Assembly (NCBI GenBank): GCA_016872215.1
Contig: VHAX01000001.1
Span: 54,004-118,003 of the forward strand
DNA length: 64,000 nucleotides
Reading direction: 5' to 3'
DNA from: Sphingomonadales bacterium
GTDB taxonomy: Bacteria; Bacteroidota; Bacteroidia; UBA7662
The position numbers and the translations under genes are program-made. The notes under the pieces were generated by a model that saw only the letters and a program-made list of their open reading frames with translations, was not told where the DNA came from and searched no databases. Shown in pieces: positions 5,604-42,573 of the stretch (its first letter is position 1; each line of letters starts with the position of its first letter).

Positions 5604-8600
5604 ATGGACTACATCCGTATTTCCCGCTATTCTCTGATTTTTTTCCTGTGTTTTAGTTTGTTCGGACTGGCATCGGGCAACTTTAAAGTATATGCACAGG
5701 GACCTCCCCTGCCGCCATCGACCCACATTCCCCGACTGCAACTGCACACAGTTGACACTGGCTGGGGGCTTCTCACCTATGGCGAACCTGTGACGCGCCT
5801 GCTCGGCTTTGAGGTGAGCGGGCAAGATCTTTCGGATACGGTGCACTTATGGGCTCCCGAGTTTTTTGAGATTCGGCTCGACAGCCTGGCAGGACCCTTC
5901 AGGAACCGAATCAGCCTGCCCGCCTCAGGTCAACTTTCTCCAACCCGGATTTTCGTCCGACTCAAGGACAGCTTGCCAGTAGGAACCTACAACGGCGAGT
6001 TGCTGGCTCTGAGTAGTGGGCAATTGGGTATAGCGTTGGGCATCGAACCCGCGGTGGTATCTACCCGTAACCTACAGGTTTTGGGTCTTCAAGCCCAAAA
6101 CAAGGATTATGACGGAAACTTACAGGCTTCGGTTGTCGGCCAAGCTGTGTTTTTCGGCCTGGCTTTCGGGCAGCAGTTTACCCCCGACCTCAGTGGAATA
6201 AGCTGGGCATTTGCTTCAATCAACGCTGACTCGGGTATTGCCGTTGCACCTGTCGGATCCATCCCCCCACCCAGTTTAAACTACACAGTTACACCGCCCG
6301 GCCTTCAGGCATCCATTCTACCCAAGCGCTTGTCGGTGGGTGGTCTCACCGCACAGAACAAAAACTATGACAGGGGATTGTTGGCGAACGTAACCGGAAA
6401 CGCTGTATTCGTAGGTCTGGTGGCCGGAGAGGTGTTTAGTCAACCCGCCCCGAGGACCTGGCAATTCGAAAACAAAATGGCCGGGATGCAGAAATCGGTT
6501 CGTCCGAACACTCCATTTACTCCGCCATCCAACAATTATACAATCGACTCCACTATACTGAGGGCCGACATTGTACCGGCTCTTACTACGGTACAATCGG
6601 CCGTGGTGCACAACAAAATATACGACCGAACGGCATTGGCAAGTGTTGATTCTGTGCGTCTGAACGGAATTTTGCCGGGCGACAGCGTTCAGGTATTGGC
6701 GAACGGCACCTTCCACCAATTTCGGGCTGGCAACCAGATTCCGGTATCGTTGAACATACAGCTTTCCGGGCCCGATGGCGCCAACTACACGGCAGCAGCA
6801 CCCACGGGTTTATCCGCGAACATAACACCACGGCCCGTGCAGATTACCGGAATTTCCGTGGCAGAAAAGGAATATGACGGTACCCGATCTGCAACGCTAT
6901 TGGGTATTCCACAGCTACAGGGCATCCTTTCGGGCGACGAAACCGATGCAGTTCTTGGTGGACAACCCTTAGCTTTGTTTGCCACACCCGATACAGGCCG
7001 CAACATTCCGGTGACGGTGAGCGGTTTTCAGCTGAACGGGTCAGCCGCCGGAAGTTATCATTTGAGTCAACCCACCGGCCTTCAGGGTGATATTGTATTA
7101 TCGGTTTTGGCAGCCTGGAATTTTCAGCCAAATCATGGCACGCTGCAACATCCCGAGGCCAATGTGGGGCAAGGCTCTCTCTCTCTAATTGGCTCGATGA
7201 GCACTCTGTCGTGGTCGGGTGGGATGAGTACCCAGAATGGCTGCGGAAACGCTGGCACAATGAGCGCAGGCGATACAGCCTGGTCAATTGGTATCACCAA
7301 TCCGGGCAACATAAACGAGTCAGGCGGAATACAGTTGATGTTGGGCAGCGCCTTGTACAGAAACATTAAAATTGTATGGGATCAACGCTGGTCGGGTTCA
7401 TCGCCCAATACCGTACGATTGCAGTACAGTACAGACGGTATCCAATGGGTGAATGTACAGCTCACCGATAGCAACACCAGCTATTGTTTAGGCCGTCTCG
7501 ACAACGGCCGTTTCGAAACCGATTCCACGGGCGATAAATTCCGACGCATCCGGGTTGATTTATCCCAAATCACCCAGATCAACGAACAGACTGTTTTGGG
7601 CTTCCGGATCGTTGCTTCCCATTTCCGAAATACAGGCGCCTTTCGTCAGGTCATCAACCCATCAACAACCGCAACTTCAGGTGCCTGGCGATTCGACAAC
7701 ATCCGGATTACGGGAAAACGGGCAACACCCACGGTTTGGAACGGGGTGAATTGGAGCCAGGGCTCACCCGACACCGGAATCCACGCTATCGTATCGGCCC
7801 CGCTTCGCATCACCCAAAATTTAAACACCAACCGACTGGAACTGGACAGCGGTGCCGTATTGAACGTGGATTCGGGTGCCATACTGAACATAAGAGGCAC
7901 ATTTACCAATCGGGGCATCCTGCAACTAACAGATGGTAAGGCCATCCTCAGGGAAAACTATATCGGTTCCGGTCTCATCCGCGGCAGTCAACGGTCGACC
8001 CTGGAATTACAGCGACAAAACGACGCGGGAACGGTCCTCATGGATAGTCTTTCCGGTAGAAATGCACACACAATTGAAACCCTCATCATGAACATGGGTC
8101 CCCAAGGCCGTCTGCGTCTGGGAAACAAGATGATCATCCATCGGGTCGTAGACCTGAGAGGTGGTGTGCTTCAGACACAGGATAACCTATGCCTTTCGTC
8201 CACTTCCGACACCCTAACTGCTCAAATCAGGGGTGGAACCAATACCTCCATTCAGGGGAAGGTGGATGTGGAACGACACCTTGGGTGGGCAGGCGCCGGC
8301 CACAGCGGATATCGATTTGTGGGGAGTCCGCTCCGCTCCTCGCTACCATTCGCTCTGGTTGGTGGCCTTCCTTTCACACCAAATAGCGTGATTCGCTTCA
8401 GTGAACCACTGAACGCTTATCTATCCGTCCCCATCACCGGTAATCAGTGGAATCCCGCCCAGGCCTACGGTATTTGGACCGATAGCATTCGCACCATTCG
8501 CTTGAGTGGAGAGCCCCAGCTGAACCAATCGGGGCCCTATTTCCTCCAGAATCAATCGGCCCGCTGGAATTTAATGGGCAACCCGTTCCCAAGCGCTATG

Positions 8601-9521
8601 GCATGGGACTCAGTACAGAAAACCAATACCGAAAATGCGGTCTGGGTCTGGAGGAAAGATAGTTTGATTCCGGTTGCTGGGATCTGGGCTGCATACATCA
8701 ACGGGGTGGGAATAAATGGCGCAAATGGGATCCTGGCGCCACTACAAGGTTTCATGGTACGTGCGGGCACCAACGGCTTATCTTCCGTTTTCTTTCCGTC
8801 CACTGCCCGGCAACCCGATATGACTGCTGGTTTTCTGCGACAAAATCAATTTCATCCCCAGATCAGCATTACTTTGGAACAAGCTACACCCAACTTTCGG
8901 GAAGAAGCCATGATTCAATTGAATCCGGATGCAACGTCTGGGTTTGATATCCAACATGATGCGGGATACCTTGGAGATGAATCGAGTGTTTCCCCCTCAC
9001 TCGGCAGCCTCGACTACAATGGTTACGCCTACAGCATCCAATCCGTTCCCGATCCTACCGGTTTGGCCAGGGTCATACCTCTTCGAACTGATTTAGGTCA
9101 GATCGGGGCCTGCCAACTCAATATTCAGCTAAGTCAATGGCCATCGTCAACCCCCATCTTTTTGGAAGACCGCTTGCTTCAGTATATAGAAACCATTGTT
9201 ACTGGTATGGTATACAGCTTTCAGTCAACCGGCCCGGCCGACTCCCTGCGCTTCCGCATACACCTGAATTCAGTTAGTAGCGACATACAAGAAGATGATC
9301 TTTCGAAAATCCAGGTCTTCTTTCACGACGGAAAACTGCACATTCGGCAGGCGGGATCATTAAAACGAATCGAACTCCGGGATCTCAACGGAAGATTGAT
9401 CCAGAGCATCTTTCCCGAGGGATCCAACGAACTCCAATTACCGTTGCCTATCGCCCAGGGCCTCTATTGTCTAACACTTCATGGTAATCGAAGCTTATCC
9501 ACCCGAAAACTAGTGCGATAA
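5604..9521 (+). CDS. Giant T9SS-secreted cell-surface protein (1305 aa) with four MBG (YDG-type) repeats and a C-terminal sorting domain
   Basis: Signal peptide MDYIRISRYSLIFFLCFSLFGLASG. Repeats with QNKDYDGNLQA, QNKNYDRGLLA, HNKIYDRTALA and AEKEYDGTRSA spaced about 85 aa apart (nt ~6080-7080). A beta-helix-like middle region. C-terminal T9SS CTD (...IQVFFHDGKLHIRQ...GLYCLTLHGNRSLSTRKLVR). Confidence 0.7.
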   Translation: MDYIRISRYSLIFFLCFSLFGLASGNFKVYAQGPPLPPSTHIPRLQLHTVDTGWGLLTYGEPVTRLLGFEVSGQDLSDTVHLWAPEFFEIRLDSLAGPFRNRISLPASGQLSPTRIFVRLKDSLPVGTYNGELLALSSGQLGIALGIEPAVVSTRNLQVLGLQAQNKDYDGNLQASVVGQAVFFGLAFGQQFTPDLSGISWAFASINADSGIAVAPVGSIPPPSLNYTVTPPGLQASILPKRLSVGGLTAQNKNYDRGLLANVTGNAVFVGLVAGEVFSQPAPRTWQFENKMAGMQKSVRPNTPFTPPSNNYTIDSTILRADIVPALTTVQSAVVHNKIYDRTALASVDSVRLNGILPGDSVQVLANGTFHQFRAGNQIPVSLNIQLSGPDGANYTAAAPTGLSANITPRPVQITGISVAEKEYDGTRSATLLGIPQLQGILSGDETDAVLGGQPLALFATPDTGRNIPVTVSGFQLNGSAAGSYHLSQPTGLQGDIVLSVLAAWNFQPNHGTLQHPEANVGQGSLSLIGSMSTLSWSGGMSTQNGCGNAGTMSAGDTAWSIGITNPGNINESGGIQLMLGSALYRNIKIVWDQRWSGSSPNTVRLQYSTDGIQWVNVQLTDSNTSYCLGRLDNGRFETDSTGDKFRRIRVDLSQITQINEQTVLGFRIVASHFRNTGAFRQVINPSTTATSGAWRFDNIRITGKRATPTVWNGVNWSQGSPDTGIHAIVSAPLRITQNLNTNRLELDSGAVLNVDSGAILNIRGTFTNRGILQLTDGKAILRENYIGSGLIRGSQRSTLELQRQNDAGTVLMDSLSGRNAHTIETLIMNMGPQGRLRLGNKMIIHRVVDLRGGVLQTQDNLCLSSTSDTLTAQIRGGTNTSIQGKVDVERHLGWAGAGHSGYRFVGSPLRSSLPFALVGGLPFTPNSVIRFSEPLNAYLSVPITGNQWNPAQAYGIWTDSIRTIRLSGEPQLNQSGPYFLQNQSARWNLMGNPFPSAMAWDSVQKTNTENAVWVWRKDSLIPVAGIWAAYINGVGINGANGILAPLQGFMVRAGTNGLSSVFFPSTARQPDMTAGFLRQNQFHPQISITLEQATPNFREEAMIQLNPDATSGFDIQHDAGYLGDESSVSPSLGSLDYNGYAYSIQSVPDPTGLARVIPLRTDLGQIGACQLNIQLSQWPSSTPIFLEDRLLQYIETIVTGMVYSFQSTGPADSLRFRIHLNSVSSDIQEDDLSKIQVFFHDGKLHIRQAGSLKRIELRDLNGRLIQSIFPEGSNELQLPLPIAQGLYCLTLHGNRSLSTRKLVR

Positions 9522-9603: not shown

Positions 9604-12600
9604 ATGAAAACCAATATACTTTTCTTATCTAATTCGGTACGAGGTCAATATCAAAAATCGGTTGTTCGTCCACTCTTCAGTTCATTCATTGCTCTTACCC
9701 TGATTGCTTTTGGCATCTCCAGCTCAGCTCAGGCCCAGACCGACACCCTCGCAACCTGGGAGTTGACGGGGATCAACACCACAATCCCTCCTTGGGGCCT
9801 TTCTCCGCTTCCCGCGCAGATTGTTTCCCCCGCTGTAACCACGGATGGTTGGACGCGAGGTGCGGGAGTTTTGTTCACCGCTGCCGGACTTTCAACAACG
9901 GGCAGCCCGGCTGGTAATGCATGGGGTGGTAACGGATGGGATGCTTACACCACTGCAGGAGCAAATAACATTGATTCTGCATTGTTCAGGGGCGATTTTG
10001 TGAGCATATCCTTCAATGTTGTTGCCGGTCAAACAGTTAGCTTCTCGAGCATTCCTGCCTACAACATACGCCGCTCAAGTTCTGGCCCGAATACGGGTCA
10101 GTGGCAATTCAGCGTCAATCCGAATGGCACTTTTGTGAATATCGGCAACCCAATTACCTGGGGCACAGTAACTACTGGTACAGGAAACCCTCAAATAGCT
10201 CTTGATCTTTCAACCATTGCAGATCTGCAAAATTTGAGTGGTGGAACTTCAGTCACATTTCGAATTGTTAATACGGGAGCTACTGGCTCTGGAGGCACAT
10301 GGTACCTAAACCAATTGACTGCCGCGGGCAGAGACTTCAGTTTCATGGGCAGTGTTGGTGGTGGCGGAAATCCGACTGTGACCCTGACATTGGGCGCTGT
10401 TACACCAGGTCTCTTCTGCACTATGGCGAGTGGACAGTCGACCGTGTTTGCCAATTATTCCTCCACTGGTACGCTGACCGGACCTGTTGAATTACAATTG
10501 TCGAATGCCCAAGGTTCATTTACAAGCCCTACTGTATTGGGCAATTCACCGGCATCTTTTGGAACGATCACAGCCACCCTACCCTCGGGATTGCCCAACG
10601 GAACAGGCTACATGTTTCGCCTCGTTTCAGGAAGCACTGTAAGTTCACCCTCTTCTTCTGTGCGCATCTACAGCACGCCGCTCGAGGCAACTGCCTTCAC
10701 TGCAACCCCAGGTAACGGAACGGTTACACTCACATGGACCAACCCATCGGATTGCTTCGACCAAGCGCTTGTGGCGGCCGATGCAAACGCCATCAACGGA
10801 GTGCCGTCGGGTAACATTTTCTTATCCAACCCAATATTTGGATCGGGTGCTAACCTGAACAATGGATATGTGGTATTTGCCGCTACGGGCAACAGTATAA
10901 CGGTAACGGGTCTCACGAATGGCACCACTTACCATTTTAAGGTATTCACACAAGGCGGAAACACGTGGAGTTCAGGAATAAGTGTACAGGCCACTCCATT
11001 TACAACAGGCGTACTGCCCATAGTGAACATTTCATCCTTTGTGGGTACGGATTCACTCGGAGCGCTCACGAATTTGGGCAGCCGCTACCGAATCTCTGGT
11101 GTGGTGCATGGCATTAACCAATACAGAAGCACAAGTACCCCACTTGGTGTGCAGTATATAGTTTTAGATCAGAGTGGTGGCATTACAGTTCGTCGCGCCG
11201 GAACTGGTTTCGGCATAAGCGGTCTCGCCCAGGGGGATTCCGTTGTAGCAGAGGGAATTTTGGAGCAGTACAATGGTCTGGCCCAATTGAACATCGATAC
11301 AATGATTCAAATCTCTACCGGAAACGTCCTTCATCCGGCCCAAGTGGTGAACACTGTATCGGAATTAACCGAAAACAAGCGAATCCGCATCAATAATTTG
11401 TATATTCTCTCCGGCAGCTGGCCAGCGACAGGTTCGCCTAATAGCAATCTAATCGTTACTAATGGTACGGATACTATGCAGTTGTTTATTTTGAACCTGA
11501 CCAATATTCCGGGTACCACCCCACCAGCTGGTCTGTTCGATGTAATTGGTTATGGCGGGCAGTATGACGTGAGTAGTCCGTTGACCTCCGGCTATCAGTT
11601 GCAGCCCCATTTTTCTTACGACATCATGCCGGTAACGGTGGCCACCCCCACCCTCAACTTCACCCGGGTCGACACCTTCATTCAAAATGCCTCTACGAGT
11701 CTGCTGATGACCCTAGCCGTACAAAATCCGAGAACAACAGCGCAAAGCGTGAGTTTCACCGTCAACGCCAGTTCGGGTGCTGCCTATGGCACAAACTGGG
11801 AGACCTACCCACCCGTTGTGGGCAACGCCCTTACACTCCCGATTCCTGCCAATGCCACCACTGCCAGTTTCAGCCTGATCCTGTACGGAAACATTCCCGT
11901 GGGTCGCACCGACACGATGCGGTTTACCATCTCCTCGGCAACGGGTGGTTATGTGGCTGGTCCCCTTTCCAGCGCCGCTGTTCGTGTGGGCAATCTGGTT
12001 GCACCAGTATTACCTGAATATTCCATCGGCATCATCCGCGGCAACAATAATGGTGGTGTGGCCGATTCAATCAATGTAAACCTACGCACGAGAGGTATTG
12101 TGTTGGGCCTCAACAAGCGTCCGGCGGGTCTGGAATTCCATATTTTCGACAAGAACAGCAACACGGGCATTGGCGTTTTCCGGAATACGGGCAACCTTGG
12201 TTATACTGTGCGGGAAGGCGACTCAATATTGGTGCAAGGAATTGTGTCCCAATTTAATGGCCTATCGCAGATTACTGTGGATCAGTTGACACTACTCGAC
12301 TCGAACCGTACTCTACCCACTCCTCAGCTGGTGACCGCAATGGGTGAACAAACGGAATCGCGACTGATTCAAATGAACAACCTCACTATGGTTACGCCTT
12401 CCCAATGGCCGACACCAGGTACCACGGGCTCTGGACGTACGGTGCGGGTGACCAATGGTGTCGATTCATTCGATGTCCGAATTGACAATGATGTTAATTT
12501 ATTTGGCACACCTGCACCCACAGGTCCATTCAACATGGTTGGTATTGGCGGACAGTTCAGCACGGTCACACCACGCGTAGGTGGCTTTCAGTTGATGCCC

Positions 12601-13770
12601 CGATACATCGCGGATTTGTTGCCTGCAGTCGTATTCAATACCATTGGTGGCTCTTTGCGCTACGACAACACTGCTCAATCGCCTATAACCAATTCGACTG
12701 TACAGTTGCTATCGGGCACCACCATCATACAGTCGGCTACAACCACGTCGACTGGCTCATTCAATTTTGGAAACTTACCCGACGGCGCCTATAGTATGGT
12801 GGCATCTACAACTAAGCCATGGGGAGGTGTAAATGCCACTGACGCTCTCAATGTGGCCAGACATTTTTCCAACACTCAGTTGCTTTCTGGCCTTCGCCTC
12901 ACCGCAGCTGATGTTAATGGTTCGTCCTCCATCAACTCCACAGATGCTCTGAACATATCAAGGCGCACTGCTGCAGTGATTACCACATTCTCTGTAGGCA
13001 ACTGGTATTTTGAGTCGCCCCAACTGACTGTGAGTGGTGGAACAACTACCACTCAAAACATCAAAGGCATTTGCTTTGGGGATGTCAATGGCAGCTACAA
13101 CCCTGCACTGAGAACACTACCCACGGTTTCACTCATTAATGGCGCCACGACAACCGGTTTGTACACCTCAATCCCGGTAACGGCAGCAGAAGACATAAAA
13201 CTAGGTGCTGTCACCCTAATTATGGACATTCCACAAGGCGTTGAAGTTACTGAAATCGTTCCGGCTGCGCTCATAAGTGGCTCATTTGTGTCTACCATAG
13301 TTAACGGGCAGGTAAGAATTAGTTGGTATTCACTCGATGAAGTGCAGTCATCTGCAGGCGAAGAATTGTTTAGCCTGCGCACCCGTTACAATGGTCAACG
13401 CTCAATCGCTGCATCGGAATGGACAATCGATGCGATTAGTGAACTGGCAGACGGATGGGCCAATCCATATACACGTTCCGTATTGAAAATTGGCGTATTG
13501 GCTGGAGTCGAATCAAACAGTGTTTTATATCCAAATCCCTCGAATGGGGTTGCCAACCTACGTTTTGAATTAACCCAAACAGCGCAAGTTCACATCCGAA
13601 TCATGGACATGTCCGGACGCCAAATCCACAGCATAAACCTAAATCAGTCGACCGGTATCCATTTAGTTGAGATGCCATATCTCGCTACTGGTCAGTATCT
13701 GGTACGCCTAAACATTGAATCGGACAACACATCCAGCAGCGAAGTACACCGTTGGGTTGTGAAGCACTAA
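9604..13770 (+). CDS. Giant T9SS-secreted surface protein (1388 aa) with an FN3-like domain, a dockerin-like Ca-binding module, a cohesin-like module and a C-terminal sorting domain
   Basis: Signal peptide (...IALTLIAFGISSSAQA). FN3-like TATPGNGTVTLTWTNPSD. Dockerin-like GGVNATDALNVARHF...ADVNGSSSINSTDALNISRR (nt ~12820-12965). Cohesin-like LGAVTLIMDIPQGVEVTEIVPA...VNGQVRISWYSLD (nt ~13150-13400). T9SS CTD VLYPNPSNGVANLRFELTQTAQVHIRIMDMSGRQIHS.... Confidence 0.7.
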   Translation: MKTNILFLSNSVRGQYQKSVVRPLFSSFIALTLIAFGISSSAQAQTDTLATWELTGINTTIPPWGLSPLPAQIVSPAVTTDGWTRGAGVLFTAAGLSTTGSPAGNAWGGNGWDAYTTAGANNIDSALFRGDFVSISFNVVAGQTVSFSSIPAYNIRRSSSGPNTGQWQFSVNPNGTFVNIGNPITWGTVTTGTGNPQIALDLSTIADLQNLSGGTSVTFRIVNTGATGSGGTWYLNQLTAAGRDFSFMGSVGGGGNPTVTLTLGAVTPGLFCTMASGQSTVFANYSSTGTLTGPVELQLSNAQGSFTSPTVLGNSPASFGTITATLPSGLPNGTGYMFRLVSGSTVSSPSSSVRIYSTPLEATAFTATPGNGTVTLTWTNPSDCFDQALVAADANAINGVPSGNIFLSNPIFGSGANLNNGYVVFAATGNSITVTGLTNGTTYHFKVFTQGGNTWSSGISVQATPFTTGVLPIVNISSFVGTDSLGALTNLGSRYRISGVVHGINQYRSTSTPLGVQYIVLDQSGGITVRRAGTGFGISGLAQGDSVVAEGILEQYNGLAQLNIDTMIQISTGNVLHPAQVVNTVSELTENKRIRINNLYILSGSWPATGSPNSNLIVTNGTDTMQLFILNLTNIPGTTPPAGLFDVIGYGGQYDVSSPLTSGYQLQPHFSYDIMPVTVATPTLNFTRVDTFIQNASTSLLMTLAVQNPRTTAQSVSFTVNASSGAAYGTNWETYPPVVGNALTLPIPANATTASFSLILYGNIPVGRTDTMRFTISSATGGYVAGPLSSAAVRVGNLVAPVLPEYSIGIIRGNNNGGVADSINVNLRTRGIVLGLNKRPAGLEFHIFDKNSNTGIGVFRNTGNLGYTVREGDSILVQGIVSQFNGLSQITVDQLTLLDSNRTLPTPQLVTAMGEQTESRLIQMNNLTMVTPSQWPTPGTTGSGRTVRVTNGVDSFDVRIDNDVNLFGTPAPTGPFNMVGIGGQFSTVTPRVGGFQLMPRYIADLLPAVVFNTIGGSLRYDNTAQSPITNSTVQLLSGTTIIQSATTTSTGSFNFGNLPDGAYSMVASTTKPWGGVNATDALNVARHFSNTQLLSGLRLTAADVNGSSSINSTDALNISRRTAAVITTFSVGNWYFESPQLTVSGGTTTTQNIKGICFGDVNGSYNPALRTLPTVSLINGATTTGLYTSIPVTAAEDIKLGAVTLIMDIPQGVEVTEIVPAALISGSFVSTIVNGQVRISWYSLDEVQSSAGEELFSLRTRYNGQRSIAASEWTIDAISELADGWANPYTRSVLKIGVLAGVESNSVLYPNPSNGVANLRFELTQTAQVHIRIMDMSGRQIHSINLNQSTGIHLVEMPYLATGQYLVRLNIESDNTSSSEVHRWVVKH

Positions 13771-14084: not shown

Positions 14085-15026
14085 TCAGCCAATTTCCTTT
14101 TCTGAAACTGAAGCATCGGAGGTTTCCCCCAAACTGCGTCGGACATAGAGGGCAGAATTCATTTCAAAGCCAATCAGTATTACCCAGGCATTGACGTAGA
14201 TCCACAGCATCAGAACGATCAGGGTAGCCAGTGAACCATACAAATGGTTGTAGTTGCCGAAATGCTGAACGTAATACGAAAAACCTAGAGAGCTGCCAAT
14301 GAACAGCAAGGTGGCCAGAGCTGAACCCATGGCAAAAAAACCATGTCGTTTGGGCGCATTCGGCGCAAAATAATAAAGCAAGCCTATTCCCATATAAACA
14401 AGTAGCACAATCATCATCCAAAGCAGAACATTGAGCAGAAAAGGCAAAAGTCCATGCGGCATCCAACCCAGGCGATTCATCTCTCCAAGCAAAAAATCTC
14501 CCAACAAAATCAATAGTAGCGACGAGAGCATACAAAGGGTAAGTAAAATCGTTAGTCCCAACGTTGTGAGTTGCTGCCGGATGAATCCACGGCTTTCGCG
14601 CACTTCGAGCGAAATATTAAATGACTGACTGAGGGTGGTGAGTCCGGTCGTGGCAAAGTAAAATGCGAGCAGAAAACCAAATGACAAAAGGCCCCCTTGT
14701 TGTCGCCCCACAATATCCTCTATGGTGCTGTACAATAAATCAAAGGCTGGGGGCGGCAGTAGTTCCTGTGAGGTCCGCCGGATTGCCAGATCCAGTCCGG
14801 GTACCGGAATATAGGCGATCAGCGTGAATAAGAAGAGCAGACCAGGGAACAAGGCCAGAAAGAAACTAAATCCAATGGCTGAGGCCCGTAAATTCAAATC
14901 CGACTGTCGCAGTTGTTTCACGAGATATTCCATCAAATCGTATAGGGGAACCGACGGACGATGGCCCACTCGCAAGCGATTAAGTTGCGGCTTCAGGGCA
15001 CCGATTAAACGGTCGGCAACTCGCAT
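14085..15026 (-). CDS. YihY/BrkB-family inner-membrane protein
   Basis: Multi-pass membrane protein with ASAIGFSFFLALFPGLLFLF and LSFGFLLAFYFATTGLTTLSQSFN blocks typical of YihY. Start re-placed at ATG 15026 (MRVADRL) to avoid overlap with the upstream thioesterase gene. Confidence 0.6.
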   Translation of the reverse strand: MRVADRLIGALKPQLNRLRVGHRPSVPLYDLMEYLVKQLRQSDLNLRASAIGFSFFLALFPGLLFLFTLIAYIPVPGLDLAIRRTSQELLPPPAFDLLYSTIEDIVGRQQGGLLSFGFLLAFYFATTGLTTLSQSFNISLEVRESRGFIRQQLTTLGLTILLTLCMLSSLLLILLGDFLLGEMNRLGWMPHGLLPFLLNVLLWMMIVLLVYMGIGLLYYFAPNAPKRHGFFAMGSALATLLFIGSSLGFSYYVQHFGNYNHLYGSLATLIVLMLWIYVNAWVILIGFEMNSALYVRRSLGETSDASVSEKEIG

Positions 15027-15037
15027 AGAGATTTTTT

Positions 15038-15451
15038 TCAATGGGCCGGGAAAAAGGGAGACAATGCCGAAATGAGACGGTCTGGGGCGCGACAAGGTTT
15101 TCCGGATTCTGCTAAAAGGAAAACGAGTACGGTTTGGGCCTCGTGAATGATAGCGCCGCCGGATCTACTAATGGAGTATTCGAAATGAATCCGTGCGCCG
15201 GGAAGCATCGGAATTCGGGTTTCGATGTTTAATTCATCGTCATAAAAAGCCGGTTTCAGATACCGGGCATGAAGATCCAACACAGGCATCCAAATACCCG
15301 AATCTTCAAATTCTGAATAGTGGCAACCCAAAGTCCGAAGCGACTCAACTCGTCCAATTTCATACAATCGTGCATAATTTCCATAGTACATGAACCGCAT
15401 CTGATCTGTATCTGCATAGCACACTCTGTATGAAGTATTGTATTGAAACAT
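15038..15451 (-). CDS. Acyl-CoA thioesterase, YbgC/4HBT hotdog-fold family
   Basis: 137 aa. YRVCYADTDQMRFMYYGNYARLYEIGRVESLR matches the Y.V.Y.DTD..G.V.H..Y..Y.E.AR pattern of YbgC-type thioesterases. Confidence 0.65.
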   Translation of the reverse strand: MFQYNTSYRVCYADTDQMRFMYYGNYARLYEIGRVESLRTLGCHYSEFEDSGIWMPVLDLHARYLKPAFYDDELNIETRIPMLPGARIHFEYSISRSGGAIIHEAQTVLVFLLAESGKPCRAPDRLISALSPFFPAH

Positions 15452-16604: not shown

Positions 16605-16608
16605 TCGA

Positions 16609-18591
16609 TTAGCCTTTAATTTGTAGAGATCTATAGAGCTCTGTAGCCTGGGGGTGACCAGGAAACCTAGCCAGTAAACTCTTGAGCGCGGCAATTGCCT
16701 CAGGTTTTTGTTTTCGGAAGAGCAGCAGGCCAATGAAATTCATGCGTGCGGATAGGTTATCGGGTTCCAGTGAGAGAGCCTTGCGGTACCAGTGCTCCGC
16801 CTTACGATCATCCCCTGCCCTCAAACTTAGGTATCCCAGGTTGGTCATTGCGGGAACGTACGACGGCTGCTCGCGCAATAACTCCTGAAGGTGATCCGTA
16901 CACTTTTGTACCTCTCCCCCATTCAATTCGGCCAGAGCAAATTTCAATCGAAAGTCGAGCTGATAAGGCATAAGCATAACAGCAACAGATAAATATGATT
17001 GTGACAATTCAAGATTCCCATTCTCCAGCAGTAGCTCCCCAAGGCGGTAAGCGCTCCAGGCGTCGAGGCGACCCAGCCAATTTCCGTGACGCGCAGCCAG
17101 CCGAACCGCACCGGGTATATCATGGCGCAGAAAAGTCAAATGGATCGAAGTTATGAGCCACAACAAGCTATCACTGCCAACTTCCATTTGTTTCAACCAA
17201 AATCCCGCTGAATCGAGAAATTCAGGTTGTGGGTCAAAACGTTCAAATTGCTGCAACAAAGCTCTTGCACGGGTGAGCGCATCCGGGTTGGGTTCATTGA
17301 TGCTGGCTAGACCCACAAATCGTCCCCTTGCCACCATAATCGAACGTCCATTTCTAGGATAGACCCTGATTTTATGATCTGTAATGCTAACATGAGGAAT
17401 GTCGCTCGTGCCCGTTTTTTGCATGTGACAAGAAACACAATCGTTATTCCGAACCTTACGCTCTGTCATGGGGGCGCCGCAGTCATCCTGACTGCTGTGA
17501 CAGGATCGACAGGCTGCGCGATAATGGCTGGTCGGCGTCGACTCCACGCTCTTATGAGGATTGTGGCAGCTGATACAACTTAGGATACCCGATGACCGCT
17601 TGTAACATTCCGACTGCATAAGGCGATCGGGGTGCGAAGCCATAGTGAAATGTTCCTCCTCACCTTCATAACGCGGCAGAAAGACACTCAAGACCTCATC
17701 GAGGTGCATTCCGGGCCGAAACGAAGTAAAATCCTTGCCTGGTTTGAGCACTGCGTTGCCCTGCAGATGGCAGCGTTGACAAATACTCATCTGAAGTGAA
17801 ACCGGTATGCGTCGTGGATTCACGATTCGATAATCCGGACTCACCGAGGTATCCACCAAGGTTCCGCTACGAATCCCCTCCACATGAAGGCGACCCGGAC
17901 CATGGCAGCGCTCACAATCGATCCCCGAAGGCACTCGCGCATACTTATGCTCAGAACCAGGCACCTGATCGGGATAGGCATTGTGGCAACTGATGCACTC
18001 CGACAATATAGCGCGACCGAATCGGGCATTGTTGCCGCGCTCAAAGCCGGGCGGCAAATCCCAATAACCCTTTTGCGTGTAGTAGGTCGCCGGCATCTGA
18101 TAGAGGTATCCGCCAATGCTGATCAAATGGCTGTTGGTGTGCTGCCCCGAGCCCACTACATAGCTGATTTGCTCGACACGATTGTGTACTGTATCCCCGC
18201 CCTGCAATCTGAATTCCCGCAAAAAGAGCGATGAATCGATCCGGAATGGGAGGTAGTGAAGATCATTCAGAGAATCGTACACCACATGTTGACCATCCCA
18301 GTCGGCCCGAGAGTGAATAATGTTGGCCGGTCCGAACGAACGACCCATTCCGGTTTGCATAAAACTGGAATAGATGCCGGCATGACAGCTACCGCATACT
18401 TCCTTTCCCACATAACCGGCACTGTCATAAAGATTTAAATAACGTTCGCCTACCTGCCTATCCGCCATCTTTTGGTCGGAAGAAGACACCGGTCCACACC
18501 GCTGCAATACCAACCAGGAAACCGCTAACAAAACCAAGATCTGAATTCGATGGGAACGCACAGCCTTCAGGCAAAACCGAGTCATGGGCAT
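16609..18591 (-). CDS. Secreted multihaem c-type cytochrome (7 CXXCH) fused to a C-terminal TPR domain
   Basis: Signal peptide MPMTRFCLKAVRSHRIQILVLLAVSWLVLQRC. Seven CXXCH motifs (CGSCH, CISCH, CERCH, CQRCH, CISCH, CRSCH, CVSCH) in the first ~420 aa. TPR-like repeats in the last ~230 aa (...AEHWYRKALSLEPDNLSARMNFIGLLLF...). The stop is 5 nt from the mltG start. Confidence 0.75.
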   Translation of the reverse strand: MPMTRFCLKAVRSHRIQILVLLAVSWLVLQRCGPVSSSDQKMADRQVGERYLNLYDSAGYVGKEVCGSCHAGIYSSFMQTGMGRSFGPANIIHSRADWDGQHVVYDSLNDLHYLPFRIDSSLFLREFRLQGGDTVHNRVEQISYVVGSGQHTNSHLISIGGYLYQMPATYYTQKGYWDLPPGFERGNNARFGRAILSECISCHNAYPDQVPGSEHKYARVPSGIDCERCHGPGRLHVEGIRSGTLVDTSVSPDYRIVNPRRIPVSLQMSICQRCHLQGNAVLKPGKDFTSFRPGMHLDEVLSVFLPRYEGEEEHFTMASHPDRLMQSECYKRSSGILSCISCHNPHKSVESTPTSHYRAACRSCHSSQDDCGAPMTERKVRNNDCVSCHMQKTGTSDIPHVSITDHKIRVYPRNGRSIMVARGRFVGLASINEPNPDALTRARALLQQFERFDPQPEFLDSAGFWLKQMEVGSDSLLWLITSIHLTFLRHDIPGAVRLAARHGNWLGRLDAWSAYRLGELLLENGNLELSQSYLSVAVMLMPYQLDFRLKFALAELNGGEVQKCTDHLQELLREQPSYVPAMTNLGYLSLRAGDDRKAEHWYRKALSLEPDNLSARMNFIGLLLFRKQKPEAIAALKSLLARFPGHPQATELYRSLQIKG

Positions 18592-18679
18592 TTTTAGCAA
18601 AACGTCCGAAAAATACACCTTAACGCCCTGAAATTCAAGTTGAGGTTCTATTTTTGCCCCTAAATCGTAACTCACACTT

Positions 18680-22439: not shown

Positions 22440-23406
22440 ATCCGGTTCTTTGACTGATTAAATACCGATTGCGGTCGGCCGAATTTCGGGTAACGAGCTC
22501 CGCCAAAAATCCGGTCAAAAAAAGCTGCGCCCCAACCACGATCAGCACCAGCGACAAAAAGAACAAAGGCTGTTGGGTAACCGACCGATAAGGCAATGAA
22601 AAGGCTATGTTATACAATTTCAGACCGATTAGAAAAAAGGTGATAACACCCCCTGTAACAAAACAAAGGGTGCCGTATAGTCCAAAAAAATGCATCGGAC
22701 GCCTGTCGAATTTGGACATGAAGTAGATCGACATCAAATCCAAAAATCCGTTTATAAAACGATCCATGCCAAACTTGGTGTGCCCGTATTTGCGTGCTTT
22801 ATGCTGAACCACCTGTTCCTCTATTTTTCGGAAACCGGCCCAACGGGCAATCACCGGAATGTAGCGATGCATCTCACCATAAACCTCAATACTCTTAACA
22901 ACCCTCGAATGATATGCTTTTAGTCCACAGTTAAAATCATGCAGATTGCGAACGCCAGATACCTTACGGGTGGCCCAGTTGAACAAGTGCGTCGGGATGG
23001 TCTTACTTAACGGATCGTATCGCTTCTTCTTCCAACCACTCAAAATATCCAACTGTTCTTGCTGCATCCGCTTGTACATATCCGGCAACTCATCTGGGGA
23101 GTCTTGGAGGTCGGCATCCATCGTGAATACAATCTCTCCACGAGCTGCCTCAAAACCCACATTCAGTGCAGGGGATTTACCATAATTCCGCTGGAATCGA
23201 ATTCCGCGCACCTGGCCCGGGTACTGCTCAGATTGGCGCGCGATCACAGACCATGAATCGTCGGTGCTACCGTCGTCGATGTAAATGATTTCAAATGACA
23301 AATTACTCCGCATCAGAACCTCCACGATCCAACGGGTGAGTTCGGGAAGCGATTCCTCTTCATTCAACTGAGGAATCACGACTGAAATATTCAACGGATT
23401 ATTCAT
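22432..23406 (-). CDS. Glycosyltransferase family 2, polyprenyl-phosphate sugar synthase type (DPM1/GtrB-like) with C-terminal TM helices
   Basis: MNNPLNISVVIPQLNEEESL...IIYIDDGSTDDS...FTMDADLQDSP (DXD). Two C-terminal hydrophobic helices. The start ATG at 23406 overlaps the stop of the upstream DUF4199 gene (ATGAATAA). Confidence 0.75.
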   Translation of the reverse strand: MNNPLNISVVIPQLNEEESLPELTRWIVEVLMRSNLSFEIIYIDDGSTDDSWSVIARQSEQYPGQVRGIRFQRNYGKSPALNVGFEAARGEIVFTMDADLQDSPDELPDMYKRMQQEQLDILSGWKKKRYDPLSKTIPTHLFNWATRKVSGVRNLHDFNCGLKAYHSRVVKSIEVYGEMHRYIPVIARWAGFRKIEEQVVQHKARKYGHTKFGMDRFINGFLDLMSIYFMSKFDRRPMHFFGLYGTLCFVTGGVITFFLIGLKLYNIAFSLPYRSVTQQPLFFLSLVLIVVGAQLFLTGFLAELVTRNSADRNRYLISQRTGFE

Positions 23407-23998
23407 GGTCCTGCGCTGAATCATCCATGAATAAGGGCTCATTCTTCCTTGTGAAGGCTGAAGCAATCAACGCCAAAAACAAGCCAACTATAACCAAAAT
23501 CATCCAGGATGTGGCCAGCGCCCGTGGGGTCTGGCTAAAATCACGTTCCTCAATAGCCTCCAGCTGCTCCTCTATTTGTTCACTCGGCACATCAAACTTC
23601 TCCAGCATTTGTTCCACTTGTTCAAGCGTGATCTCCTTCATATGTTCGTCCAATCCCTTGTCAATAACATTGTAAAGAACCCACATGAAGGCTACGTTGA
23701 GCAAAGTACCCAGCATACATACGCGCAACATCACCCACACACTCGTTCCATAATTCATCCAACCCCCCCCCTCTTCACGGCGATGCTCTAAGGCTGCCCC
23801 TACCATGAGGGCCACCAGCAACCCAATCGACAACAGAGAATTCCACCAGGCAATCATCAAAGCCGGATCAATTATGTATTGCACCGCAATAAAAGCAATC
23901 TGCAACACGCCTGTAATCAAACCCCATTTCAGCCAAACAGGCCATCCGCCCCTCTCTTCTTCGAGCGGATCCTTATAGAAATTGTGATCCCGATTCAT
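23399..23998 (-). CDS. DUF4199-like small membrane protein
   Basis: 199 aa with four predicted TM segments and an acidic coiled-coil insert (EHMKEITLEQVEQMLEKFDVPSEQIEEQLEAIEE). The family assignment is tentative. Confidence 0.45.
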   Translation of the reverse strand: MNRDHNFYKDPLEEERGGWPVWLKWGLITGVLQIAFIAVQYIIDPALMIAWWNSLLSIGLLVALMVGAALEHRREEGGGWMNYGTSVWVMLRVCMLGTLLNVAFMWVLYNVIDKGLDEHMKEITLEQVEQMLEKFDVPSEQIEEQLEAIEERDFSQTPRALATSWMILVIVGLFLALIASAFTRKNEPLFMDDSAQDHE

Positions 23999-24046
23999 TT
24001 TGATTGGCTTTATGGGTACAAAGTAAAGAAAAAGGAATGAAACCTC

Positions 24047-24565
24047 TTAGGAGGTTCGGTAATACAAGGAAACTAAAAAGGCAGTGAATACCGACCAAAA
24101 AAAGCGCGTGACCCAGAGGAAGGATGCCAGGAACGATGGGGTGGTTTCAAAAATACCATTTCGAAGCAACTCGGGCTGTTGTTCGTCGTAGTACTTAACG
24201 ATCGTGGCCCTGCCCTGATCGAGTTCCTCCAACAATCCCTGCACATATAGCTGCCATACCGCATCGTTCATGGTCCACATCCAAACCACCACAGAATAAG
24301 CAGTAGCGTTCAGCATACCGATTCCTACACCAGCCACCAAGCCATCCGTTACATTAAGCTGACCATTATTGTGGTCACGCCGAAACTTCCTGAGAGCCCA
24401 CACCATACCCGCAACGGTCGTTACAGACAGCAGCAAACGAAATTGCCCGAACGGATTGTAGCTAAATTGGATCAGCAGCCAAGCCAGAATCCAGGTCGCC
24501 CCTGCGGTGGCCAGACCCGCCCTGAACCCAACCGTTTGCATCATATAGCGAAAACGCTCGCGCAT
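24047..24565 (-). CDS. DUF4199-like small membrane protein (paralogue of the 23399-23998 gene)
   Basis: 172 aa, with the same 4-TM topology and similar W-rich helices (VVVWMWTMNDAVWQLYVQGLLEE). Confidence 0.4.
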   Translation of the reverse strand: MRERFRYMMQTVGFRAGLATAGATWILAWLLIQFSYNPFGQFRLLLSVTTVAGMVWALRKFRRDHNNGQLNVTDGLVAGVGIGMLNATAYSVVVWMWTMNDAVWQLYVQGLLEELDQGRATIVKYYDEQQPELLRNGIFETTPSFLASFLWVTRFFWSVFTAFLVSLYYRTS

Positions 24566-26719: not shown

Positions 26720-28753
26720 TTATGTGATATTTCGCGCTAAAATCATCTCCAACAGCAAACATAGCAAAACACCGGCAAGCAGCCATCGCCAGAGACCAGA
26801 ACTGCCCGCTTCGGCTACCAATCCACCGGCCACCGAAGAATCGCGAAGGGAATAGCTGTTCCATCCTCGTTCCCCGGCCAAAGCCGACAGAGATTCGGCC
26901 GACCAATACTGGAGCTCTGACTCATCCGATGAGGCGTTTAGGGCCACAATCTCTCCGGCCAGGGGTTGGCCGTCGAGCATGACGGAATAGTGACCAGGGG
27001 TCATGATACCGTCCATGATTCCCAGGCCCAGGCGGTCGCCCTGACGGCTTACCTGCGGAACCATGCGCTGTGGACCATTAACGAGTGATATGAGTCCATC
27101 CGGCCGAACTCCCGGAATGCTGAGCTCGATTCTTGGGGTAGAGCCCAATCGCCAGGAAGAAGGCATATTTCCACCCGCCATCAACATAGCACGGTAGAGT
27201 GTGGGCACCCACAAAGCCTGTTCCGGGAAATCAGACCATTCCTTTTCCGGCGCACTCAACAACAGAAGCATTTGGCCAGCCCCAACCTTGCGACGCACGA
27301 GCCATGGCGATCGGTCAGCCAATTGCATGATGGTGTAATCGTCGGGCAAGAGGTTGGTCGACCAGTATTTTTGAACCGTAGGAAGCGCCAATTGTTCCGG
27401 AATCCGTTCGAAGGTCTCCTGATAGAGAGGATCCTTCACCTCTATCCGGGCAACCTGCTGTCGCTGTGCCACCACATTCAGACATTTTCCTCCTCCGGTG
27501 GCCGCGAGCAAGGAATTGACCACTATGGGATCCGAAAGACCGGAGGGGAGCACTACTACGGATCCTCCCTGCTGCATTTTATCATGTAGTGCGGTCAACA
27601 ACCCGCTGCTGACCTGCGATAGCCGGTCCAGAATCACCCCCTTGGCCGAAGAAAGCGCGTTGTAGTCGATGTTCAATCGCGAGGTCACGCTGCAATTCAT
27701 AAACTCATCTCCTGAGAACAAGCCACTTACATAGGGACTAGCTTCCGCTTCGGTGATGTGAAGCAGCGGGAAACGATCGGCCACCTCCATACGCATATAC
27801 CAATGCCGGTCGTAGTCGAGTCCCGACTCCTCCACCGACAAACGTGCGGTGAGGATGCCAGCCTGAGCAGGTGTGAATCCGAGAGTATCCGATGCAGTTC
27901 CAAACGCGGGAACGTCCAGGGTCGAAAGGCCCTTTTGAGCACCCTCCATCTCCAGAAGGATGCGCACACCTTCTGCATCGCGACTACCCCCATTTCGAAC
28001 TGCCAAAATGAGTCGCGCAGGCTGACTGGTTTGCAACAAGGGCTGCTCCACATATGCTGTGTCGATGTAGACATGCGCGAACGGGGCGGGACTAAACTGA
28101 AGCAGGTGCACCACAGCGGATGTATCGATGGAAATGTCGGCCAGAGGGTAAGCCGAATTCTGGAAATCGCCCAACCAATAAAGGCGTGCCTTATGGGTTA
28201 CCCCGGTATAGCGTATCAGCTCCAACTGCCGTTCCTTGATTTGATTGAGCGGGCGCACAGCCGCGGTGACCGTAATCTGAGCCAGGGCCTGAATAAACTC
28301 ATCGCGCCCCAACCAGCGTTGACTTCCGGGAGCGAGCTCATGTGAAATCAATTGAAACTGATCGGTAGCGGGTAATTGCTGGGCCAGCGACCGGGCCGCC
28401 TCACGCGCTTGCTCCAACAAAATTCCACCTTCGCCTGCCAGCGACATACTGGGTGAATTGTCGACGAACACCGAATGGTAGCCCTGGCGAAGTGCGGAAT
28501 TATTTTTCCCATCGCCACCCCACTCCGGACGGGCAAAAGACAGCACCAATAGAACCACCGCCAAAGTACGGCTTGCCAGAACCAGAAGATGTTTGAGGTG
28601 ACTACGCTTGCGGTTTTGTTCTCGGATCTCCTTGAGCAAGCTGACGTTGCTAAACAAAATGCGCCGTGGAGCTCTGAAACTAAACAAATGAACAACCAGA
28701 GGGACGAGGGCCAAAAAAAGACCCCAAAGGGCCGCCGGTTGGGCAAATTGCAT
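26720..28753 (-). CDS. BatA-domain (N-terminal double-TM) von Willebrand factor A protein with a C-terminal TM anchor
   Basis: N-terminus QPAALWGLFLALVPLVVHLFSFRAP (TIGR02226-like). vWA MIDAS motif VFVDNSPSMS (DxSxS). C-terminal TM LWRWLLAGVLLCLLLEMIL. 677 aa. Confidence 0.55.
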   Translation of the reverse strand: MQFAQPAALWGLFLALVPLVVHLFSFRAPRRILFSNVSLLKEIREQNRKRSHLKHLLVLASRTLAVVLLVLSFARPEWGGDGKNNSALRQGYHSVFVDNSPSMSLAGEGGILLEQAREAARSLAQQLPATDQFQLISHELAPGSQRWLGRDEFIQALAQITVTAAVRPLNQIKERQLELIRYTGVTHKARLYWLGDFQNSAYPLADISIDTSAVVHLLQFSPAPFAHVYIDTAYVEQPLLQTSQPARLILAVRNGGSRDAEGVRILLEMEGAQKGLSTLDVPAFGTASDTLGFTPAQAGILTARLSVEESGLDYDRHWYMRMEVADRFPLLHITEAEASPYVSGLFSGDEFMNCSVTSRLNIDYNALSSAKGVILDRLSQVSSGLLTALHDKMQQGGSVVVLPSGLSDPIVVNSLLAATGGGKCLNVVAQRQQVARIEVKDPLYQETFERIPEQLALPTVQKYWSTNLLPDDYTIMQLADRSPWLVRRKVGAGQMLLLLSAPEKEWSDFPEQALWVPTLYRAMLMAGGNMPSSWRLGSTPRIELSIPGVRPDGLISLVNGPQRMVPQVSRQGDRLGLGIMDGIMTPGHYSVMLDGQPLAGEIVALNASSDESELQYWSAESLSALAGERGWNSYSLRDSSVAGGLVAEAGSSGLWRWLLAGVLLCLLLEMILARNIT

Positions 28754-30714: not shown

Positions 30715-30716
30715 TC

Positions 30717-32459: not shown

Positions 32460-32465
32460 GAAGTT

Positions 32466-35400: not shown

Positions 35401-35546
35401 TTATCGTATTGCTGGATAGCCTCTGACAGGCGATCGGAGGGTTGATGCAGGTTCTGTGGCCGCTGAGCGTACACAAATTCTGGCCAGTTGGCCGTCAGTA
35501 AGACAAGTAGTATAAAATAAAAAACTGCGGTGCGTCTTTGCATCAT
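32466..35546 (-). CDS. Secreted tetratricopeptide-repeat protein (1026 aa)
   Basis: Signal peptide MMQRRTAVFYFILLVLLTANWPEFVYAQ, with no lipobox cysteine. TPR-like helical repeats throughout (many W/Y-x-x-A-x-x-Y/F and G-x-Y blocks). Confidence 0.6.
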   Translation of the reverse strand: MMQRRTAVFYFILLVLLTANWPEFVYAQRPQNLHQPSDRLSEAIQQYDKGQYRVVLSLLDQAYTRMPHTTRNDGWTPTELFQARVYDALSRARLGWPGSQALMEQLYDEMQGTFEADRVRLQLMQYRHRDKKYSEVISLSKEVQWPRMHKNERQQGDYLRGYALWKKGDAQTARTLLEPLTRTESPEAPLASLAMGKVCDESGQHEQALAFLDPIREHPSCSLYVPPLLARQYYRMGRYEDLFSYALPLSARPGLEQADQLNHIIAQAYFSTGEYASFLTYIERYQKLGGRLSPAGQFRLGFASYTLGDPEKAASAFQEATTSLDDTLSHRSFLLLGEACLQLGRSHEALAAFYTASRRKGTPEINELAAFRYAQLCCQLKMNNQALMELKGFLKNYPQSAHTEEVKSMLSGQLLVGKNFREALDVFRSLRQTEAVQRVLWQRAALYRAMQLYQEGNFTTAEQHFNEALELASEVNVTRRAHYWRGETRFRLQKFAQSADDYKAYLNLRKAVPEGVESQENAAMANYGLAYAYFRMEEFRLAEDYFRRVVSAPASEWSNAPGEEGRNTLVADARLRRADALFALKQYRAAFDVYGECQKTGANRPDYSAYQQAILQGLMGRQADKILSLERFLARYRGSEFWETAVLELMGAGHNEGLPFKSLAYADTLERVKPGSPLMPSAWLIRGLILYQQDQVQPAIDQYTRLLRTYPQSPQASEALATLRVIYAEQNRPDDYLEMRKNIGLGTPADSEMDTLRFQSAEQAYNRGDCQLARKEVDEYLKKYPNGSYHLYARLIRAQCARSLNQRDSMYADLEDLAGRSLHPYTESVLRMLAEERAADSSWQQSAEAWKKWGGWVSAPQDVQEALAGQMTAWVNLENWPELEKIANRILEMESAPEALRTDAQIASALCLMEASRLSDAQTILEKVYASNKNEPGATALYYLADIAFRKGDYPKCQARVFEMADRIPYYDHWLGMAFLLLSDSYIAQKNAIQARATLESIAQGDAPDYIRAKARSRLIKMPAPN

Positions 35547-35629
35547 AGTTTAAAAAGGCATTAGGATAATGCCATCAGCCCCGTCTAACGGGGTAAATTT
35601 CCAAAAATTATCAAAACAAAAATCTACCG

Positions 35630-37960: not shown

Positions 37961-38080
37961 AAAGTGGCGAATATACGGTTTTTGCTCATCCAAACAGGCT
38001 ATTTTCTGATGAATAACCGCCAACGCTGGATTATGGGAGAGACCTACCAAAATATGTCCCCTTTGCCTGCCCTCAATACT

Positions 38081-41259: not shown

Positions 41260-41268
41260 ACCCGAATA

Positions 41269-42572: not shown

Positions 42573-42573
42573 A

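Follow-up and report, generated by a model that had tools for sequence, protein, structure and literature searches.

What is a protein that carries seven CXXCH haem-binding motifs in front of a tetratricopeptide repeat (TPR) tail doing in a genome that otherwise looks aerobic? The question is raised by a 64,000-nucleotide stretch of contig VHAX01000001.1 (assembly GCA_016872215.1, Sphingomonadales bacterium, Bacteroidota in its GTDB lineage), referred to here as the window, in which one minus-strand gene, reading from an ATG at 18591 to a stop codon at 16611-16609, encodes such a protein. The initial annotation of the window called the fusion unusual beside the genes for Nqr and SucC. Those genes are present, nqrA-F and sucC having both been confirmed in the window, but according to our analysis the fusion is neither rare nor out of place, and the gene is an ordinary member of an uncharacterised heptahaem-TPR family. 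With a confidence slightly above even, we regard its product as a periplasmic seven-haem module of the c554/MccA/OcwA branch, tethered to a membrane and serving in electron transfer or as an oxidoreductase, which would dock a partner through the groove of its TPR domain.

The combination of seven haem motifs and a TPR tail is old, fixed, and widespread. More than 5,500 homologues came out of a search of 5.8 billion proteins, the best 120 being full-length (607 to 697 amino acids [aa]; 42 to 100% identity), and a scan of one genome per species placed the gene in at least 564 species. The best 80 species matches are Bacteroidota metagenome-assembled genomes (MAGs), labelled as Chitinophagales, Saprospiraceae, Sphingobacteriaceae, Flavobacteriales, Flavipsychrobacter, Aureispira, and Owenweeksia, together with one Rhodothermales, while a second search, started from a distant member, uncovered a large Acidobacteriota branch. 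When the haem domain alone was compared exhaustively with the representatives of 50%-identity clusters, it matched 1,553 clusters at E < 1e-30, a number that rises to 3,351 at E < 1e-10; almost all of the matched proteins are 560 to 750 aa long. Exactly seven CXXCH motifs occur in 271 of 278 full-length relatives, and ten of the most distant relatives (35 to 40% identity) all possess the TPR tail. The fusion is thus typical of lineages of aerobic heterotrophs; it occurs mostly in aerobic Bacteroidota and also in Acidobacteriota. A widespread, routinely annotated family with the same tail, which the initial annotation itself had named as the outcome that would tell against its view, is largely what these searches returned, although the homologues, where they have been named at all, are called "tetratricopeptide repeat protein," TadD, PilF, or "hypothetical," and not cytochromes. 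We found no paper on the family in literature that covers few subscription journals; one candidate preprint was set aside since it concerns an NrfG-like maturation protein. What is known is the superfamily of multihaem cytochromes c, and what is new is the count of seven haems, the anchor, and the C-terminal domain.

All seven CXXCH motifs stand in the order in which they were first listed. A chance origin was rejected, since 20,000 shuffles of the protein's own residues gave a mean of 0.02 and a maximum of 2 motifs, and none is present in any other open reading frame (ORF) of 100 aa or more that the window contains. The motifs are invariant in 33 homologues and essentially invariant in the 279-sequence alignment of family members from which the conservation counts given here are taken. 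Several conserved CXXCH motifs behind an N-terminal hydrophobic export segment are what is expected of a multihaem c-type cytochrome. Five further positions are universal and are candidate distal (axial) ligands, namely, Met82 (Met in 267 members and Lys in 12, aligned to a His in OcwA and c554), His236, His346, and His406 (each in 279 of 279), and His400 (278 of 279). Arg193 is kept in 278 members as well.

The cysteines outside the haem motifs follow a pattern of their own. Cys329 is invariant (279/279), and the loop between haems 6 and 7, which holds Cys371 in the window protein, contains a Cys, as a rule 14 residues ahead of haem 7, in 255 members; the other 24 all have a His in the loop, so that none lacks both. 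In eight members Cys329 is the sole extra cysteine, which argues that it is more than a disulfide partner. Cys329 and Cys371 can be read in three ways, as a disulfide, as ligands in His/Cys ligation of one or two haems, or as part of an MccA-like metal site.

The AlphaFold2 model, built on 33 homologues and free of haems (mean pLDDT 84, pTM 0.82), shows a beta-sheet block at residues 104 to 178, mixed structure to about residue 430, and 13 helices from 438 to 658. The beta-sheet block, an insert that adjoins haem 2, is among the most conserved parts of the protein and holds many invariant polar residues; Gly147 and Pro167 are found in all 279 members, and Y113, Y171, and D178 in more than 93%. 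Its His151 and His155 were rejected as obligatory haem ligands, being replaced by Gln/Ala and Tyr/Phe, respectively, in about one-quarter of the members. Two types of site covary, N153/H155/R273 and R153/Y155/Q273, from which it follows that the GSGQHTNSH loop should adjoin the motif of haem 4.

Where does this haem domain belong? Among solved structures, a search with the single protein matched only OcwA (6I5B, Thermincola; E 3e-6), and a 12-sequence profile matched OcwA (3.5e-12), MtrA (chain 6r2q_A; 2.6e-10), and OmhA (5.4e-8), followed by NrfA (2e-3), c554 (0.06), and MccA (0.085). Alignment of the CXXCH motifs to the haem sites of a known multihaem fold, whose failure would by its own account have told against the initial annotation, was thereby obtained: haem 1 with the helix that follows it, haem 2, haem 3 with its CxxCHGPGxxH signature, and haem 4 align to OcwA haems 1 to 4, and the signature is common to OcwA, OmhA, and the c554 family. 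In OcwA, haems 1 to 4 superpose on cytochrome c554 and haem 2 has an open site; a beta-sheet domain which other NrfA-type proteins lack is common to OcwA and MccA (PMC6703420). In phylogeny, OcwA, OmhA, MccA, and c554 form one clade (PMC9250108), and the open-site haem 2 is kept in all four (PMC6703420, PMC9250108). A profile of the last three haems matched MtrA best (2.9e-12), followed by NrfB (6e-4) and MccA (1.4e-3). The mapping of haems 5 to 7 is ambiguous, since HMMER places them on OcwA haems 5 to 7, whereas the CHNPH and CHMPK signatures suggest OcwA haems 6 to 8; in the latter case, the NrfA-type catalytic haem would be missing, as in MccA. In alignments judged by eye, a stretch like CHMPK...TDHKI near haem 7 is also present in NrfA and OcwA. 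Significant similarity to OcwA and OmhA, with the haem motifs in order, places the domain in the NrfA/HAO/c554/MccA/OcwA superfamily, but the C-terminal three-helix oligomerisation bundle, which c554 and OTR lack as well, is not there, a TPR solenoid following the haem domain instead. Fold searches matched TPR structures only.

Membership in the c554, NrfB, or decahaem families, for which the initial annotation had suggested a check with hidden Markov models, did not hold. The scores are far below the cut-offs for c554 (NF043010, 13.8 bits against 400), NrfB (TIGR03146, 16.0 against 166.6), NrfH (TIGR03153, 16.1 against 134.2), DmsE/MtrA (TIGR03508, 42.5 against 192), OmcA/MtrC (TIGR03507, 17.1 against 209), and GSU2203 (NF041028, 52.3 against 325), while Pfam PF13435 (Cytochrome_C554) is borderline (21.1 against 20.8, over 36 residues). 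Judged by these scores, the heptahaem protein is a relative of all these families and a member of none of them.

The TPR-like character of the C-terminal tail was borne out. Pfam TPR_2, TPR_19, TPR_14, and TPR_8 score above their cut-offs within residues 550 to 654, and the modelled fold is that of a helical repeat, so that both the Pfam gathering scores and the structure place the domain among TPR proteins. R516, K550, N584, and N618, spaced by exactly 34 residues, form the sixth residue of helix A in four consecutive repeats, and they are conserved in 202 to 236 of the 279 members. Position 6 is not a structural TPR position, and in OGT the same position forms an asparagine ladder which binds extended peptides. 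The ladder suggests that these residues line a peptide-binding groove, and we infer from it a conserved peptide ligand in the concave face.

On this basis, a course for the electrons can be proposed. The protein would be an exported heptahaem c-type cytochrome, held at the membrane by its N terminus through either a lipidated Cys32 or an uncleaved helix. Its haem domain would begin with a c554-like four-haem module with the beta-sheet insert, the three further haems would follow the pattern of paired CXXCH units seen in MtrA, NrfB, and MccA, and the TPR solenoid would replace the C-terminal helical bundle of NrfA-type enzymes. Electrons are presumed to enter from the respiratory chain and to pass along closely packed haems, ending either on a ligand-accessible haem of the protein itself or on a partner protein, the latter possibly bound in the TPR groove, with its Arg/Lys/Asn/Asn lining, in the form of an extended peptide; the gene would be co-transcribed with mltG, its downstream neighbour, in a housekeeping envelope gene block. 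By analogy with OcwA, c554, and MccA, we lean slightly toward an enzyme that oxidises or reduces a small nitrogen or sulfur compound, since the nearest relatives all have an open haem and since the invariant polar beta-sheet insert lies beside haem 2.

Several observations weigh against this assignment. NrfA, c554, and MccA are matched only marginally, no NCBIfam model scores above its cut-off, and among the curated models the Pfam haem matches are borderline and generic. Genes for haem maturation (ccsA/ccsB or ccm), whose presence elsewhere in the genome the initial annotation had proposed to check, were not found in the 64-kb window, and no quinol dehydrogenase, porin, or terminal reductase is conserved as a neighbour in 90 loci. 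Haem attachment and the ligand assignments are themselves deduced from the sequence, and when the ligands for the seven haems are counted in this way, the five universal His/Met residues, Cys329, and the Cys-or-His position of the loop would suffice as sixth ligand for all of them, so that the open catalytic haem is a candidate.

This count speaks for a pure electron relay, the leading alternative, which is less probable than our main reading as a whole though nearly as likely as an enzyme with a ligand-accessible haem of its own. Here all seven haems would be six-coordinate, capped by Met82, His236, Cys329, His346, Cys371 or its His substitute, His400, and His406, and the protein would be a tethered periplasmic wire like MtrA/NrfB, leading from the respiratory chain of the inner membrane to an enzyme recruited by the TPR domain. 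The best match of the last three haems is indeed to the wire protein MtrA, followed by NrfB, and the conserved TPR groove implies a protein partner, yet no partner gene is conserved nearby. Nor does a mere wire agree well with the nearest full-domain relatives, OcwA, OmhA, c554, and MccA, all of which retain the open-site haem 2, or with the high conservation and polar-rich character of the beta-sheet insert next to that haem.

The gene neighbourhood bears on a further reading. The initial annotation had mltG directly downstream, and its product indeed scores 155.6 bits against TIGR00247 (cut-off 103.4); the gap is 4 nucleotides (nt), the earlier figure of 5 nt being the offset from the last base of the stop codon to the ATG. 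We clustered the neighbouring ORFs across 83 loci, 74 of which have enough sequence, and mltG directly follows the cytochrome gene on the same strand in 34 of these 74 Bacteroidota loci, with a median gap of 8 nt; the cytochromes of the paired loci span the whole divergence range of the sample, to 37% identity. Owing to the 4-nt gap and to the recurrence of the pair, co-transcription with mltG, as first suggested, is likely, and a functional link is possible. The order mltG, 4HBT thioesterase, BrkB/YihY is found again in L001 and in L083-L085. The upstream neighbours vary, with a divergent valS in the window and in L001, an upstream GNAT gene in 21 loci (24 when every position is counted), dapF in 15 (16), and tyrS in 11. 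The pair with mltG is broken in a Saprospiraceae/Lewinellaceae locus and in a group of loci which includes Flavipsychrobacter MAGs, and it is absent from all four Acidobacteriota-type loci inspected, where the protein architecture is unchanged.

These data invite the view, which we deem unlikely, that the protein is a redox-responsive cell-wall adaptor, whose TPR domain would have a peptidoglycan enzyme as its ligand, MltG being the obvious candidate, and whose haems would report the redox or oxygen state of the periplasm. NlpI, LpoA, and CpoB of Proteobacteria, which are TPR lipoproteins, serve as the model. The pair with mltG persists while what lies upstream changes from valS to GNAT with dapF, rhodanese, or tyrS; other neighbours are the cell-wall genes dapF, ddl, and a gene for a PASTA-domain protein; and Cys329 with the Cys371 loop could form a redox switch. 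However, housekeeping genes may keep a common order although their products do not interact, several of the loci inspected have the pair broken or absent, the acidobacterial ones with an unchanged protein architecture, and seven haems are excessive for a sensor. Its sharper form, in which one or two haems capped by Cys329 and Cys371 would change ligation with the redox state of the periplasm and act as the switch while the TPR groove holds MltG or another peptidoglycan enzyme, we judge quite improbable; if true, respiration or oxygen would tune the termination of glycan strands in Bacteroidota, for which we know of no described precedent.

Some loci have distinctive genes near the cytochrome. 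In two lineages (L083-L086), a gene for a rhodanese of 99 to 100 aa lies 23 to 75 nt upstream on the same strand, and a cargo gene of the type IX secretion system (T9SS), a PASTA-domain gene, and ddl lie further upstream; such a pairing of a rhodanese with an invariant-cysteine relative of MccA may be a lead toward sulfur chemistry. In two syntenic acidobacterial loci only (L089, 1163-4513; L090, 1-770), NapC/NirT-type tetrahaem genes are found 2.5 to 6 kb upstream on the other strand, with unrelated genes in between, and the same upstream region of L089 also holds a gene for a multihaem-cytochrome b fusion. Beside a distant family member in L088 (8540-12748), two more TPR proteins and an FG-GAP/UnbV_ASPIC protein are encoded, which may represent a TPR-rich neighbourhood that recurs in its lineage.

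The N terminus bears on the location of the protein. A hydrophobic helix (residues 16 to 30) follows basic residues and precedes Cys32, a residue that 247 of 279 members retain. The canonical lipobox [LVI][ASTVI][GAS]C occurs in only 42 of 240 members; the window protein reads L-Q-R-C, with an Arg at -1, and the acidobacterial members have canonical lipoboxes. The signal peptide of the initial annotation is upheld as an export signal, but its "secreted" was too strong, a membrane tether being more likely than a cleaved secretion signal; the sequence is compatible with either a lipidated Cys32 or an uncleaved hydrophobic helix as the tether. A database protein, P0001, is 100% identical and annotated with 28 extra N-terminal residues (688 aa). 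Its start falls at about 18675, in the promoter region of valS and five bases from the valS ATG, and is probably a start-codon miscall, since the homologues begin near Met1; an even longer GTG start at 18696 was rejected since it overlaps the start of valS and, again, the homologues begin near Met1. Long antisense (plus-strand) ORFs inside the cytochrome gene cluster together across 24 loci and most likely reflect the conserved sequence of the sense strand rather than a gene.

A conserved N-terminal Cys, followed in about 65% of the members by at least one acidic residue within five positions, loosely resembles the export signal of Bacteroidota surface lipoproteins, and the closest solved relative, OcwA, is a cell-surface terminal reductase. 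The protein might accordingly be a surface-exposed lipoprotein cytochrome which reduces extracellular iron, humics, or flavins, as a Bacteroidota counterpart of OcwA/OmcA. We think this very unlikely, as none of the six residues that follow Cys32 in the window protein is acidic and its lipobox is non-canonical, no porin or export partner is encoded nearby, the gene stands among housekeeping envelope genes, and the hosts are mostly aerobic heterotrophs. Finally, a helper of cytochrome c maturation like NrfG/CcmI, to which a weak TPR_CcmH_CycH match (PF23914, 23.8 bits) and the JGI name "CcmH/NrfG" of two relatives might point, or a protein whose CXXCH motifs bind metal instead of haem, is barely credible: the PF23914 match stays under the cut-off (42 bits), NrfG and CcmI are not known to carry a haem domain while one is present here, and the motifs align to genuine haem sites, CxxCHGPGxxH included. 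Both a maturation chaperone and a chance origin of the motifs can in effect be dismissed.

Table 1. Features of the heptahaem-TPR gene and its surroundings in the window (functional assignments of domains and ligands are predicted)
Feature	Position	Strand	Basis or remark
Heptahaem cytochrome c-TPR coding sequence, 660 aa + stop	16609..18591	-	ORF list, translation
Export signal and likely membrane tether, aa 1-32: basic n-region, hydrophobic helix, conserved Cys32	18496..18591	-	
Haem domain, aa 33-437, seven CXXCH	17281..18495	-	Profile matches; weak Pfam Cytochrome_C7, Paired_CXXCH_1, Cytochrome_C554
CXXCH 1, CGSCH, aa 66-70	18382..18396	-	Invariant TGMG motif follows; Met82 codon 18346-18348
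Beta-sheet insert between haems 1 and 2, aa 104-178	18058..18282	-	AlphaFold strands; GSGQHTNSH motif at 147-155
CXXCH 2, CISCH, aa 199-203	17983..17997	-	Aligns to OcwA haem 2
CXXCH 3, CERCH-GPG-xx-His236, aa 226-236	17902..17916	-	CxxCHGPGxxH signature
CXXCH 4, CQRCH, aa 271-275	17767..17781	-	Arg273 covaries with residues 153, 155
CXXCH 5, CISCH-NP-His346, aa 339-346	17563..17577	-	Invariant Cys329 upstream, codon 17605-17607
CXXCH 6, CRSCH, aa 361-365	17497..17511	-	Loop with Cys371 follows, codon 17479-17481
CXXCH 7, CVSCH-M, aa 385-390	17425..17439	-	DIPHVSITDH follows (His400, His406)
TPR domain, aa 438-660, 13 helices, four canonical repeats from 511, 545, 579, 613	16612..17280	-	
Spacer of 4 nt, cytochrome stop to mltG start	16605..16608	-	Read from sequence
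mltG, YceG family endolytic transglycosylase, 376 aa	15474..16604	-	Pfam YceG, E 4e-68
4HBT thioesterase	15038-15451	-	Pfam; downstream of mltG
BrkB/YihY-family membrane protein	14085-15095	-	Pfam; downstream of mltG
Divergent intergenic region, cytochrome gene to valS, 88 nt	18592..18679	.	valS starts at 18680

On its other side the gene diverges from valS, and the distance between the two starts agrees with the roughly 90 nt first given (Table 1). Within this region, TATTTTTG at 18649-18656 on the plus strand, upstream of valS, fits TAnnTTTG, the -7 promoter consensus of Bacteroidota. A scan for sigma-70 promoters and terminators gave results at or below the expectation from shuffles, with models that are unsuited to Bacteroidota. 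DUF4199 and the two glycosyltransferase genes beside valS are syntenic with L001.

Elsewhere in the window, a complete nqrA-F operon for the Na+-translocating NADH:quinone reductase occupies 39940-45877 (minus strand), with all six subunits above the NCBIfam equivalog cut-offs, and sucC lies just downstream (38679-39869). Two adjacent plus-strand genes encode giant proteins, one of 1,305 aa with YDG domains (5604-9521) and one of 1,388 aa with a dockerin-like repeat and a type IX secretion C-terminal sorting domain (9604-13770); both are probably large T9SS cargo or adhesins. A same-strand block at 29533-38050 (minus) includes a TonB-dependent-receptor-like protein with CarboxypepD_reg and Plug domains (35630-38050) and an all-TPR protein of 1,026 aa (32466-35546), which is followed by ORFs of 580 and 393 aa that have no Pfam or NCBIfam match. 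Tandem S8 subtilase genes of about 900 aa each are found at 54858-57575 and 57622-60288 (both plus), the T9SS sorting domain being detectable in the first only. A membrane protein with a BatA-N domain, of the aerotolerance operon type, and two adjacent DUF4199 proteins are encoded at 26720-28753 and 23399-24565 (both minus).

Multihaem cytochromes are usually studied in the anaerobic respiration of metals, nitrogen, and sulfur. The family described here occurs in hundreds of Bacteroidota species, most of them aerobic, where its genes stand in blocks of housekeeping envelope genes, and it is present in Acidobacteriota too; because annotation pipelines see only the TPR tail, it escapes genome surveys of redox metabolism. 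With a family model of its own, thousands of entries now called "tetratricopeptide repeat protein" could be corrected, and knowledge of its substrate or partner would fill a gap in the map of periplasmic electron transfer in two phyla that are abundant in soil and water. Should the link to mltG prove functional, it would connect respiration with cell-wall remodelling. With the notion of an unusual fusion gone, what is left is a large hidden redox family, a conserved cysteine pattern, and a persistent linkage to mltG.

Among known systems, OcwA of Thermincola potens (6I5B) and OmhA (6QVM) give the best profile match and have in common with the window protein a beta-sheet region inside the haem domain. 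They differ in haem number, OcwA having nine and OmhA eleven, including an NrfA-like module of five, against seven here. OcwA has a His after haem 1 where the present family has Met or Lys as the distal residue, and it ends in a three-helix bundle in place of the TPR domain; the window protein has an N-terminal membrane tether in a Gram-negative host, and an open-site haem is a candidate feature in it. The motifs of the sulfite reductase MccA/SirA (4RKM), CATCHDPH, CTDCH, and SCASCHMP, align to haems 5 to 7, and the His in the MccA loop before SCASCHMP matches the His-type members of the heptahaem family. MccA, however, has eight haems, one attached through CX15CH (or CX17CH), while the window protein has seven canonical motifs and no CX15CH site, Cys371, 13 residues ahead of CVSCH, forming no site of this type on its own; compared with the copper site of MccA, the conserved Cys329 and Cys371 would make a putative metal site at most. 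Cytochrome c554 (1FT5) has four haems and no C-terminal module, as against seven haems here. The pentahaem nitrite reductase NrfA, whose weak profile match covers the region of haems 4 to 6, has a CXXCK catalytic haem and a helical dimerisation bundle, both absent from the window protein, which also has no nrfH or nrfBCD partners nearby. In MtrA and NrfB, repeated CxxCHnPH...CxxCH units match the last three haems, but the N-terminal module differs from that of the MtrA/DmsE decahaem wires and no MtrB-type porin gene is located nearby. As for the C-terminal half, the bacterial TPR lipoproteins NlpI, LpoA, CpoB, and PilF/PilW have no haem domain, unlike the window protein, and the TPR domain of OGT (1W3B), which carries none either, offers the concave-groove ladder to which R516, K550, N584, and N618 may be compared.

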